64,000 nucleotides of DNA from assembly GCF_013167455.1 (NCBI RefSeq), contig NZ_CP038328.1, one strand, 5' to 3'. Every line of letters begins with the position of its first letter. The first letter of the stretch is position 1. Of this stretch, positions 18,901 to 21,789 are shown in pieces. The position numbers were made by a program. Origin of the DNA: Escherichia coli O157:H7. GTDB lineage: Bacteria; Pseudomonadota; Gammaproteobacteria; Enterobacterales; Enterobacteriaceae.

Positions 18901-21789
18901 TATCCTTCGCCAGGCTTCCGCTTATTTTGCGAAGGCGGAGTTCGACCGCCTCTGGAAAAAATAATGCCGCTGCTGGATAAGCTGCGTGAGCAGTACGGGG
19001 TCGGACCGGTATGCAGTGAACTGCATATTGCCCCGTCAACGTATTACCACTGTCAGCAACAGCGACATCATCCTGATAAACGCAGTGCCCGTGCTCAGCG
19101 CGATGACTGGCTGAAGAGAGAGATACAGCGCGTATACGATGAAAATCATCAGGTGTACGGTGTGCGTAAAGTCTGGCGCCAGTTGTTACGCGAAGGTATC
19201 AGGGTGGCCAGATGTACAGTGGCGCGCCTCATGGCGGTTATGGGACTTGCCGGTGTTCTCCGGGGTAAAAAGGTCCGTACTACCGTCAGCCGGAAAGCCG
19301 TTTCCGCAGGCGACCGCGTAAACCGTCAGTTCGTGGCAGAACGTCCTGACCAGCTGTGGGTGGCTGATTTTACTTACGTCAGCACATGGCAGGGCTTCGT
19401 CTATGTGGCGTTCATCATTGATGTGTTTGCCGGATGTATCGTGGGGTGGCGAGTCTCATCGTCTATGGAAACGACATTCGTGCTGGATGCACTGGAGCAG
19501 GCGTTGTGGGCCCGTCGGCCGTCCGGCACAGTCCATCACAGTGATAAAGGTTCTCAGTATATATCACTGGCCTATACGGAGCGACTAAAAGAAGCAAAAC
19601 TGCTGGCATCAACAGGGAGTACAGGTGACTCGTATGACAACGCGATGGCGGAGAGCATCAATGGTCTTTACAAAGCGGAGGTAATACACCGTAAGAGCTG
19701 GAAAAACCGTGCAGAAGTGGAACTGGCCACACTCACGTGGGTGGACTGGTATAACAATCGACGATTGCTGGGAAGGCTGGGTCATATCCCTCCGGCAGAA
19801 GCAGAAAAAGCTTATTATGCTTCCATCAGAAACGATGATCTGGCAGCCTGAGTTCACAGATAAAACACTCTCCAGGAAAACCGGGGCGGTTCATTCCGCT
19901 ACCCGCAGGGCGTTAAGCTCGATCAGGAAAACAGCCGTATTTTTCTGCCGAAACTTGGCTGGATGCGCTACCTGAACAGCCGTCAGGTCACGGGTGTTGT
20001 GAAAAATGTCACTGTCAGCCAGTCCTGCGGTAAGTGGTACATCAGTATTCAGACAGAAAGTGAAGTATCAACTCCGGTTCACCCTTCAGCATCAATGGTC
20101 GGACTGGATGCTGGCGTGGCTAAACTCGCCACGCTGTCAGATGGCACAGTCTTTGAGCCTGTAAACAGTTTTCAGAAAAACCAGAAGAAGTTGGCGAGAC
20201 TTCAGCGACAGTTAAGCCGCAAGGTCAAATTCAGCAATAACTGGCAGAAGCAGAAACGCAAAATACAGCGACTGCATTCCTGTACCGCAAATATCCGCAG
20301 GGACTACCTTCACAAAGTCACAACGACCGTCAGCAAAAACCACGCAATGATAGTCATTGAGGATTTGAAGGTCAGCAACATGTCAAAGTCAGCAGCGGGT
20401 ACGGTCAGCCAGCCGGGGCGCAATGTCCGGGCAAAATCAGGTTTAAACCGTTCGATACTGGATCAGGGCTGGTATGAAATGCGCCGCCAGCTTGAGTACA
20501 AGCAGCTCTGGCGTGGCGGTCAGGTACTGGCTGTTCCGCCAGCGTACACAAGCCAGCGTTGCGCGTGCTGTGGTCATACAGCGAAAGAAAACCGCCTGTC
20601 ACAAAGTAAATTCAGATGCCAGGTATGTGGATATACAGCGAACGCCGATGTAAACGGCGCTCGTAACATTTTAGCGGCGGGGCACGCCGTTCTTGCCTGT
20701 GGAGAGATGGTGCAGTCAGGCCGCTCGTTGAAGCAGGAACCCACCGAAATGATTCAGGCGACAGCCTGAACGTAGCAGGGATCCTCGTCATTCAGGGCGT
20801 GGAGGATGTCAAGCTGATTCATCTATGTCGAGACGAGCAAGGAAATTACGAATTCCTTCGCGTGACAAAAATTGCGCAACTTTTTCCTGCTCACTGTGAG
20901 TCATGTTGTCTATTGCACTGATGATTTGCCGATAAGCAGGAGTGCGAATCCCCGGTGCGTATTCGGCAAGGGGTTCTTCGGCTTCCAGAAGCATCGGTGT
21001 GTTATGGAAGGCTGGCGTGTTCTGAATAAACTCGCAAACTTGCGTATCGACCAGAATAAGTCTGGCACGACCGCCTTTCACGCCGGGAAATTTTTCCGTT
21101 TTCCAGCCTTTTTCTCTGATCCAACGGTTAACAGTTTGTTTAGCCACACCGAGGCATTCAGCCAGTTCTTCGGTGGTCATTTTATTGCGTAATCTTTTCA
21201 TATTATTTGCTATCGCGAATCCCTAAGCGTTGTAACAATCCGATAATCCCTTCCCGCAGAAGCAAGGATGTAAACTGTTTTTGTTCAACTGGCGTCATCT
21301 CTTTCGCCAGTGTCACCAGCAATACTTCAAGCGGCGCATCACCAGAAAGGGCAGGCGCTTCTCCCTGACCTTCTGGACGTTCAGCATTACGAATATATTC
21401 ACGAACCTGTTCATTGACGTGAACCAGTCGGGCTTTGCCACCCTGGACGCCAGGTTTTGGTGACGTTGTCCAGCCTTCCTTGCGTACCCATTTATTAATG
21501 GTCTGGCGGCTATAGCCGGTCAGTCTGGCAAGTTCATCTGGTGTCATCCTCTCCTTGAACATAACAATTCCCTGAATGTATGTGGGTCTATTAGTAGTTC
21601 ATTTTATAGCACCACTTTACAGGAAACCGTGACATGAATAACTACTGAATGCGAGCGGTTTTCCAAAATTGTTCATTTGCCTGATTTTTCAGCGATTGAA
21701 ACTACACGTTGCAATTTGCCGTTGACACATTCGGGCGGAATTCATATGATGCCGCCCGTCAACTCGACAAGCTTTACGTGACGGGGCTA

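Follow-up and report, generated by a model that had tools for sequence, protein, structure and literature searches.

The interrupted IS609-type element between gltX and yfeD

The window analyzed here is a stretch of 64,000 nucleotides from Escherichia coli O157:H7 (RefSeq assembly GCF_013167455.1, contig NZ_CP038328.1). At its gltX/yfeD locus it carries an IS200/IS605 element of the IS609 type, which is itself interrupted by a second insertion sequence. The features that make up the locus are as follows:

17698-18240, - strand: tnpA, coding for a Y1 HUH transposase (Pfam Y1_Tnp, E=3.9e-39)
17748-17751, + strand: target site TTAT (identical to the TAM), adjoining the left end on its 5' side, read from the empty site L001
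17752-20812, + strand: IS609-type IS200/IS605 element, delimited by the empty site and by the ends of matching in other copies
17768-17787, + strand: left-end subterminal hairpin CCCCGTCC-TTCA-GGGCGGGG, putative TnpA recognition site
18248-18583, + strand: 5' fragment of tnpB (insQ), Pfam HTH_OrfB_IS605
18584-19893, + strand: IS3-family (IS1203/IS629-like) insertion of 1310 bp, with OrfA and OrfB domains and with ends read from the sequence
19894-20769, + strand: 3' fragment of tnpB (RuvC and zinc-finger part), longest ORF 19963-20769; Pfam OrfB_IS605 2e-34, Cas12f1-like_TNB 2.4e-24
20809-20812, + strand: right-end cleavage site TCAA, placed by the end of homology among the copies; 20809-20811 is the yfeD stop on the other strand
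20809-21201, - strand: yfeD, coding for a YfeC-like HTH regulator (Pfam YfeC-like 2e-61, RefSeq annotation), convergent with tnpB

The boundaries of the element are exact. The empty site L001 reads ...TTTATTTAT/GCTGATTC, which gives the junctions TTAT/CCGGTGCG...GATGTCAA/GCTGATTC (slashes mark the joints); the element itself accounts for 1748 bp, to which the IS insertion adds 1310 bp and a duplication 3 bp. Other copies were collected by plasmid blastn and a 16-mer DNA scan, which replaced a homolog search with the InsQ protein, whose list was filled by near-identical E. coli proteins and offered no diversity. About a third of the 16-mer matches were due to chance, as expected for 298 Gb, and were removed on the basis of flanking motifs. 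The matching breaks off at 20812/20813 in copies from E. coli and from plasmids that number in the thousands, and the sequence common to the copies stops exactly after GTCAA. The comparison with the same IS in other genomes, proposed in the sequence-only reading of this DNA, thus places the right end at 20812, downstream of 20769 and not upstream of it. TCAA has been described as the commonest right-end cleavage motif (PMC9956272). On the left side, five E. coli copies have a recognizable end (at three distinct loci besides gltX/yfeD), and TTAT precedes each of them. An intact copy is named in RefSeq as ‘IS200/IS605-like element IS609 family transposase’.

The disruption of tnpB, already noticed in the sequence, was borne out: an HTH_OrfB_IS605 fragment (18248-18586) is followed by the IS3-family element and then by a fragment with OrfB_IS605 and Cas12f1-like_TNB (19963-20769). 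O157:H7 PV15-279 has an intact insQ at this locus, where the 5' fragment is continuous with the sequence from 19894 onwards, and a complete IS609 is found elsewhere in O157:H7 Z903. The insertion is flanked by a TTC duplication (18581-18583 and 19894-19896) and contains an ALIL frameshift pseudoknot (18919-19035, 120.9 bits); its best match (H101) is a RefSeq-annotated IS3-like element of the IS1203 family. With tnpB split at 18583/19894, there is no intact cognate TnpB in cis. The tnpA gene is altered as well. Its stop codon is lost (TAG to CAG, visible in the alignment) and the ORF runs through the left end into the flank, giving a product of 180 aa versus 143 aa, which over 143 aa is 95% identical to an intact IS609 TnpA. 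In PV15-279, tnpA is a pseudogene according to RefSeq.

The gap between the stop codons of tnpB (20767-20769) and yfeD (20809-20811) is indeed 39 bp (20770-20808), as first reported. Since the element runs to 20812, with TCAA as its last four bases, the stop codon of yfeD lies within the IS609-type element and belongs to it. The YfeD protein is the same with or without the insertion. Read on the other strand, the target TTAT is ATAA and the right-end TCAA becomes TTGA, and an in-frame stop is retained at yfeD, ydcO, yedK and ddrA.

Structure and covariation at the 3' end of tnpB

The sequence-only reading had proposed a candidate omega-RNA region at the 3' end of tnpB, and the proposal is supported by a conserved covarying structure, by the boundary at 20812 and by colinearity with a published IS609 scaffold. 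We estimate at about 0.85 the probability that 20674-20812 (+ strand) is the omega-RNA scaffold of the IS609-type element, superimposed on its right end. The relevant features are:

20674-20690, + strand: upstream hairpin GCGGCG-GGGCA-CGCCGT, embedded in the coding part of tnpB and within the published 207-nt IS609 scaffold
20696-20812, + strand: core of the probable omega-RNA scaffold (model R1, covariation)
20782-20803, + strand: conserved right-end hairpin of seven pairs (20782-20788 with 20797-20803), helix 4 of the alignment
20813 to ~20832, + strand: predicted guide of 16-20 nt, GCUGAUUCAUCUAUGUCGAG (GCUGAUUCAUC), starting at the first non-conserved base past the right end

The covariance model R1 comprises 21 sequences from other phyla and classes, with no enterobacterial member. 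A covariance-model search had been advised from the outset, and R1 matches 20696-20812 on the + strand over its full length (99.1 bits, E=3.1e-25), with nothing comparable elsewhere in the 64 kb. A weak match at 33570-33664 (- strand) lies inside a 345-aa ORF and was taken as chance; another weak match falls at the left end (17720-17788). In the core, P1 (CCUGU/GCAGG) encloses a stem-loop; the other parts are a conserved single-stranded segment, AACCCACCGA, a stem with covariation (20746-20773), and the terminal hairpin with GGAGGAUGUCAA. It sits on the tnpB strand, overlaps the 3' end of tnpB (stop 20769) and reaches the exact right-end boundary.

In an alignment of 28 sequences, 95.4% of the cells assigned to pairs are paired, versus 84.7% in shuffles, and 11 of the 23 pairs show two-sided changes. 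The covariation score is 0.309 versus 0.122, the observed value being reached by none of 500 shuffles; it stays at or below 0.084 when the partners are moved by 1-3 columns (slide control). A case for RNA comes from helix 3, where 8 of 9 pairs covary: it lies upstream of the terminal hairpin, in a region that IS608 TnpA is not known to need, and its constraint therefore argues for an RNA. Further upstream, the pairing of 20674-20690 is kept in relatives by two-sided changes (for example GGCA..TGCC, GGGCG..CGCCC and GAGCGG..CCGCTT), and the scaffold probably starts at this covarying hairpin, upstream of 20690. Folding of the single sequence (20640-20832) as RNA gave z = -1.86, which is not significant, with the guide mispaired with the right end.

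Further support comes from a report which uses an ‘IS609 omega-RNA scaffold’ with a TTAT TAM, colinear with the flagged region over 207 nt (PMC12781874). This report, the sole one found to employ IS609 TnpB, describes the protein as purified with such a scaffold type; it presents another ortholog as the most active and, in its accessible part, contains no explicit result for IS609 TnpB. A literature search for an E. coli small RNA at insQ/ydcM returned nothing specific.

The inverted repeat singled out in the sequence-only reading, ATCCTC-N15-GAGGAT, is present on the + strand, with its arms at 20781-20786 and 20802-20807, that is, 1-2 bp inside the interval 20779-20808 originally given. Its interpretation as a conserved hairpin had to be rejected. 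It pairs without covariation (343 of 500 shuffles reach its score), and folded as single-stranded DNA it has z = -0.08, with 89 of 200 shuffles equally stable or better; the conserved pairing is that of 20782-20788 with 20797-20803. The significance of the flagged region comes from comparative evidence, not from the 6-bp hairpin.

The right end as DNA and as a probable RNA

At its right end the element has a subterminal imperfect hairpin homologous in sequence to that of the left end (CCCCGTCCTTCAGGGCGGGG at the left, CCTCGTCATTCAGGGCGTGG at the right), followed by TCAA at the exact end. Folded as single-stranded DNA, the left end (17752-17800) gives -14.1 kcal/mol (z = -3.0). In the alignment, helix 4 is 96% paired, and three of its pairs show two-sided change. 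The copy studied here has a U.U mismatch at 20785/20800, the only unpaired cell at columns 115/131 (the 27 other sequences are paired), and an additional A.G mismatch at 20790/20795. The same T occurs in other E. coli copies, namely N64 at the gltX/yfeD locus, the yeaR/yeaQ copy and the yedK copy. These mismatches could weaken recognition by TnpA or TnpB. By analogy with IS608, the last ~31 nt would provide a top-strand hairpin for the Y1 TnpA, with GGAT lying 5' of its foot, and TCAA as the site of cleavage; the hairpin would then be both the imperfect palindrome of TnpA and the terminal hairpin of the omega RNA.

It might be argued that the right end acts as DNA only, as a TnpA hairpin and cleavage site with no RNA role in E. 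coli. The homology with the left end and the terminal TCAA are as such a reading demands, the covariation of the terminal hairpin is equally expected of a single-stranded DNA hairpin, and the tnpB of the gltX/yfeD copy is dead. However, conservation and covariation also take in helix 3, P1 and the hairpin at 20674-20690 within the coding sequence, and thus extend over 100 nt beyond the terminal hairpin on its upstream side. Right ends of the IS608 type need roughly 40-50 nt, and the covarying region far exceeds this length, which counts against a purely DNA-level role. Moreover, the same core is found in RNAs shown to guide TnpB (PMC11061315; also PMC12781874). We therefore regard the DNA-only explanation as quite improbable.

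If the region is an omega-RNA scaffold, the DNA following it is the guide. The flank 3' of the right end differs at every insertion site, so that the predicted guide is specific to each copy; here it runs antisense to yfeD over the final six or seven codons of that gene. The guide length was taken from lengths reported for other TnpBs, such as ~16 nt for ISDra2. For ISFba1 the optimum is 20 nt (PMC11061315). The TAM for IS609 TnpB is given as TTAT in PMC12781874. TTAT followed by the guide sequence (TTAT+GCTGATTC...) is a real empty site, that of L001 (the donor joint), and in the window the guide sequence has a single match, preceded by TCAA and not by TTAT.

We propose that a transcript of the tnpB strand would fold into the scaffold and extend past TCAA by ~16-20 nt, with the flank serving as the guide. 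Once processed and loaded onto TnpB, the RNA would direct cleavage of TTAT+GCTGATTCATCTATGTCG (TTAT+GCTGATTCATCTATGTCGAG). Such a target would be present only at the empty gltX/yfeD site left by TnpA excision, and recombination with the sister chromosome after cleavage would restore the element. The occupied locus would be protected because TCAA stands in place of the TTAT TAM. Both the donor-joint model and trans-acting omega RNAs have been described (PMC10055086), and in E. coli K-12 RNA-seq data transcripts overlap tnpB 3' ends (PMC4615843). Because tnpB is split, any activity of this scaffold would require TnpB in trans: the orphan scaffold would depend on the TnpB of another IS609 copy and on still being transcribed itself. 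A search for sigma-70-like promoters on the + strand of 19800-21300 found none, and the break in tnpB lies 2.1 kb upstream of the scaffold; the precursor transcript may therefore be lost.

A TnpB-independent role, namely co-option of the orphan RNA for cis-antisense control of yfeD, seems very unlikely. The guide and any read-through would be perfectly complementary to the yfeD 3' end, and among 5426 complete genomes 535 have the insertion as a fixed feature, but the gltX/yfeD copy shows no sign of selection beyond other copies: its right end is ~98% identical to those beside unrelated genes (97.5% to the K-12 copy for the queried segment). The failure to find a promoter and the unaltered YfeD protein also count against such a role. 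Least credible is an intrinsic terminator or stabilizer of the tnpB or convergent yfeD transcript, which we rejected: although the ATCCTC/GAGGAT repeat lies between two convergent stop codons, and the insertion has parted yfeD from the bidirectional gltX/yfeD terminator (now 17707-17745), the GC-rich stem-loop with T-run is not there (no T-run follows 3' on either strand), a terminator scan reports no site on either strand of 20770-20812 and has its sole match within yfeD (20860-20877), the repeat has a chance-level fold energy and pairs without covariation, and the same sequence stands at every IS609 right end, whichever gene adjoins.

Beyond the omega-RNA assignment itself, one may consider the retained stop codons and the orphan RNA jointly, as a right end built for near-neutral insertion into convergent stop codons, with an omega RNA whose guide matches, in antisense, the final codons of the convergent gene, and which might be used in trans by the TnpB of another copy and could influence the mRNA of the neighbor. 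We consider this combination unlikely. If the stop-codon replacement had been selected for, and did not merely follow from the AT-richness of the target, it would add a new aspect to the persistence of IS609-type elements at gene ends. For O157:H7 the picture is one of a fixed insertion whose nuclease gene was knocked out by a second IS, and whose guide RNA could at most work with TnpB from another copy.

Relation to IS609 and other TnpB-associated systems

The right end of IS608 reportedly has an imperfect subterminal hairpin common to both ends and a TCAA cleavage site, both as here. The tetranucleotide 5' of the hairpin foot is GAAT in IS608 and GAAT or GGAT here, and the target is TTAC/AAAG in IS608 versus TTAT/AAAA here; judging from these motifs, tetranucleotide pairing would operate in IS609 too. 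ISDra2 differs in tnpA orientation and in its TAM, which is TTGAT, unlike TTAT here. In common with the ISDra2 TnpB omega RNA (Karvelis 2021, PMC8612924; structures PMC10097598), the RNA combines the 3' end of tnpB with the right end, the flanking DNA supplies the guide, the TAM equals the TnpA target, and the scaffold overlaps the coding sequence.

No Rfam family matches the flagged region at gathering score, and eight related loci are likewise without a match; in Rfam 15, no family captures the widespread IS609-type omega RNA at this threshold. The only two matches obtained at permissive thresholds, both below gathering, to RAGATH-18 (RF03064; 20696-20739, 29.5 bits versus gathering 44.9) and HgcC (RF00062; 20702-20823, 16.1 bits versus gathering 50), were used as leads and not as membership. 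Both RNAs have already been linked to TnpB (PMC11061315, PMC4615843). The basal motif fits the consensus CCUGUGGAG...CG-UGAAGCAGGAA of the RAGATH-18-derived reRNA of IS607 TnpBs (Ren et al. 2024, PMC11061315). In contrast, the apical stem is 17 nt here versus ~44, a Y1 TnpA takes the place of the serine recombinase as partner transposase, and the coding sequence of tnpB contains the motif, whereas PMC11061315 reports reRNAs outside the coding sequence and only with IS607. Thus, neither the score nor an IS607 association with RNA outside the coding sequence places the region in RAGATH-18. The likeness to sotRNAs/HgcC (Gomes-Filho 2015, PMC4615843) lies in sense transcripts overlapping tnpB 3' ends and in a terminal hairpin whose loop is UUCA and after which comes a GAGGAGGUCA-like sequence. 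Those RNAs belong to archaeal IS1341-type elements, and good alignment is confined to the 3' hairpin and the GAGGAGGUCA-like tail, with a score far below gathering.

The region flagged from the sequence corresponds to the omega-RNA scaffold and the right end of the well-known IS609, and was correctly recognized as such; it is an ordinary and already described feature. The analysis gives one IS609 copy its exact boundaries, TAM, scaffold and guide, and is of little importance beyond annotation. With IS609 (ISfinder; insQ/ydcM) the element shares the gene order (divergent tnpA, then tnpB), the TTAT target/TAM and the ...GGAGGATGTCAA end; it differs in having tnpB split by another IS and tnpA without a stop codon. 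The published IS609 scaffold, as listed in Table S3 of PMC12781874, has a perfect terminal hairpin, CCCCGUCC/GGGCGGGG, whereas the copy described here has CCUCGUCA/GGGCGUGG, with two mismatches.

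Element boundaries and the interrupted tnpB

The boundaries of the element follow from comparing the empty gltX/yfeD site of strain ZJ3920 (real sequence, ...TTTTTTATTTAT|GCTGATTCATC...) with the occupied site in the window (...TTTAT|CCGGTGCG ... GGAGGATGTCAA|GCTGATTCATC). Judged from these junctions, the element is 17752-20812, placed 3' of TTAT and ending with TCAA. The match to copies at other loci ends at 20812/20813, and the match to insertion-free genomes begins at 20813. Plasmid copies from Klebsiella, Salmonella, Serratia and Xanthomonas (69-97% identity) finish at the same base. 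The left end could be recognised in five E. coli copies, which cover three distinct loci besides gltX/yfeD; TTAT precedes every one of them, and all but one shortened copy are 1747-1748 bp long. An intact copy is labelled "IS609 family" in RefSeq, and the IS609/yfeD junction was found in 535 of 5426 complete E. coli genomes. Window positions 20300-20900 are 100% identical to E. coli O157:H7 strain PV15-279. The window copy contains the following features.

17698-18240, divergent: tnpA (Y1_Tnp domain match)
18248-18586: 5' tnpB fragment (HTH_OrfB_IS605 domain match)
18584-19893: IS1203/IS629-like insertion, 1310 bp, with TTC duplication
19963-20769: 3' tnpB ORF (OrfB_IS605 and Cas12f1-like_TNB domains), stop at 20769

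The two tnpB fragments are held apart by the IS3-family element, which together with its TTC duplication accounts for 1313 extra bp in the window. A search of 5426 complete E. coli genomes found no instance of its junction in tnpB; set against the 535 genomes with the IS609/yfeD junction, this makes the tnpB knockout look strain-specific and recent. The ALIL frameshift pseudoknot of the insertion was detected at its orfA/orfB overlap (18919-19035; 120.9 bits, E=5e-32). The tnpA stop codon has also been lost through a single base change relative to intact copies (TAG to CAG; 17698-17811). The ORF is thereby 37 codons longer, reading first across the left-end hairpin, then across the gltX terminator, and stopping immediately beside the gltX stop codon at 17697. 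This tnpA retains an intact HUH motif and RQY tyrosine.

Conserved structure at the 3' end of tnpB

The sequence-only reading had proposed a candidate omega RNA at 20690-20808, and this is supported by a published scaffold, Rfam leads, cross-phylum relatives and an independent covariance model. PMC12781874 describes a 207-nt "IS609 omega-RNA scaffold" paired with a TTAT target-adjacent motif (TAM), and window positions 20606-20812 are colinear with it. The covariance-model search suggested by the same reading, run over the 64-kb window with a model of 21 non-enterobacterial sequences alone, recovered 20696-20812 (+) end to end (full-length match, 99.1 bits, E=3.1e-25), with no comparable match elsewhere in the window. 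A weak match at 33570-33664 (-) (16.6 bits, E about 0.006) lies within a 345-aa ORF and is probably due to chance.

A scan covering a single genome of each species found the 16-mer AGCAGGAACCCACCGA at 121 places; roughly two-thirds of these have the full architecture CCUGUG-stem-GAAGCAGGAACCCACCGA-stem-GUAGGAAUCC-hairpin-GGAGGAUGUCAA. These relatives span Proteobacteria and Actinobacteria, and the sequence after TCAA is unrelated among them. Conservation of the core 16-mer and of the end GGAGGATGTCAA reaches from Enterobacteria as far as Streptomyces, Frankia and Rhodococcus, and in many copies (e.g. loci L033, L051 and L123) the terminal hairpin is enlarged by an insertion of 25-45 nt. For an alignment of 28 sequences, RNAalifold predicted 23 pairs, 11 of which are altered on both sides. 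The covariation score was 0.309 versus 0.122 in shuffles (0 of 500 as high), and did not exceed 0.084 when partners were moved by 1-3 columns. The helices are as follows.

20674-20690: upstream hairpin inside the tnpB coding sequence, pairing kept through both-side changes
20696-20700 with 20733-20737, +: P1 (CCUGU with GCAGG), invariant bases
20746-20773, +: helix 3, covariation at 8 of 9 pairs
20782-20788 with 20797-20803, +: terminal hairpin, both-side changes at three pairs

Since pairing in the upstream hairpin is held even where the encoded residues change, the scaffold probably starts near 20674. The terminal hairpin (CCTCGTCA-TTCA-GGGCGTGG), with GGAT located 5' of its foot, corresponds to the hairpin at the left end (CCCCGTCC-TTCA-GGGCGGGG, 17768-17787). 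By analogy with IS608, we take it to be the predicted TnpA recognition hairpin and TCAA to be the cleavage site. That the region is a right end at the DNA level only is improbable, because this would not account for covariation lying over 100 nt 5' of the hairpin.

In the terminal hairpin, 18 sequences have CG at alignment columns 115/131, six have UG, three have AU, and the window alone has U.U. The right-end hairpin of the window copy has mismatches at 20785/20800 (U.U) and 20790/20795 (A.G); the former position is A-U in K-12 and C-G in most relatives. The T variant there is common to several E. coli copies and also perfects the pairing of ATCCTC with GAGGAT, the hairpin singled out by the sequence-only reading. 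That reading placed the tnpB stop (20769), the yfeD (-) stop (20809-20811) and the 39 bp between them correctly. Its hairpin does exist (ATCCTC 20781-20786, GAGGAT 20802-20807, 15 nt apart) but fails as a conserved pairing: it lacks covariation, the observed score being reached by 343 of 500 shuffles, and 20 of the 28 sequences cannot form one of its pairs. On its own, this hairpin folds no better than chance as single-stranded DNA (z = -0.08), and the RNA fold of 20640-20832 (z = -1.86) is not significant either.

Stop codons supplied by the right end

At four independent sites the right-end TCAA is the source of the convergent neighbour's stop codon (TGA).

Window: 20809-20814
L002 (compared locus): 3010-3013
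L133 (compared locus): 2210-2213
L004 (compared locus): 604-607

Because the target TTAT is ATAA on the opposite strand, the element inserts in or beside stop codons and substitutes its own in the same frame. The protein is unaltered in yfeD (GCA TAA to GCT TGA; empty site compared with real sequence) and ddrA (GCA TAA to GCG TGA), while ydcO gains one Tyr (CGA TAA TAA to CGA TAT TGA) and yedK one Cys (GTT TGA TAA to GTT TGT TGA), the last three against reconstructed empty sites. As far as could be checked, the element-supplied yfeD stop codon is apparently not standard knowledge.

The insertion has left the bidirectional gltX/yfeD terminator hairpin (AAACGGCAGGAGAGATACCCCTGCCGTTTTTT, 17707-17745) on the side of gltX. 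With yfeD now 3 kb from this terminator, transcription of the gene should continue into the element and run antisense to both tnpB and the scaffold. Co-option of the RNA as an antisense regulator of yfeD is very unlikely, nothing having been found in its support. The hairpin can be rejected as a terminator, as it lacks a T-run and a terminator scan gave no site there. A terminator-like stem with a T-run at 20860-20877 (+), 48 nt 3' of the right end and within yfeD, could stop read-through from the element; it is no better than shuffles.

Predicted guide and relation to known RNAs

In the omega RNA, the guide would be 20813 to about 20832. TTAT plus this predicted guide is exactly the empty-site sequence; in the window the guide is preceded by TCAA, so the occupied locus is without a TAM. 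A model of excision, TnpB cleavage and recombination has been published (PMC10055086). The likely mechanism follows this model: TnpA would excise the element, leaving a scarless TTAT|GCTGATTC... joint; TnpB carrying the omega RNA of the window copy would cut this joint, and recombination with the sister chromosome would restore the element. With tnpB dead in the window, any activity of the RNA would depend on TnpB provided in trans. A complete IS609 can be present at another site in O157:H7 genomes, and PV15-279 has intact insQ (the tnpB of IS609) at the same locus. According to PMC10278001, omega RNA is made by TnpB from its own mRNA; this mRNA is interrupted in the window copy, and a scan of the + strand (19800-21300) found no sigma-70-like promoter.

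The element, its TAM, the scaffold and the general occurrence of tnpB 3'-end transcripts in E. coli are already known; the window copy is one instance of the described type, so the finding is of low interest. Transcripts overlapping tnpB 3' ends were reported from E. coli K-12 RNA-seq and have a UUCA hairpin in common with HgcC (PMC4615843). Rfam matches to the region, two in number, are sub-threshold, and both are to RNAs linked with TnpB. HgcC aligns at 20702-20823 with 16.1 bits; there the right end corresponds to the family's 3' hairpin and its tail, GAGGAGGUCA. RAGATH-18 matches 20696-20739 (29.5 bits; gathering score, 44.9), and the match fits its consensus CCUGUGGAG...CG-UGAAGCAGGAA on each flank. 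Among eight related loci tested, no Rfam gathering score was reached except for tRNA; this widespread scaffold goes undetected by Rfam 15 when gathering scores are applied. Insofar as could be checked, neither this gap nor the location of a RAGATH-18-like core in an IS605 coding sequence appears to be standard knowledge. The guide RNA of IS607 TnpBs has RAGATH-18 at its core, and the motif is said to co-occur only with these TnpBs, outside the coding sequence (Ren et al. 2024, PMC11061315). In contrast, the RAGATH-18-like core in the window lies within the ORF of an IS605-type tnpB, accompanied by a Y1 TnpA.
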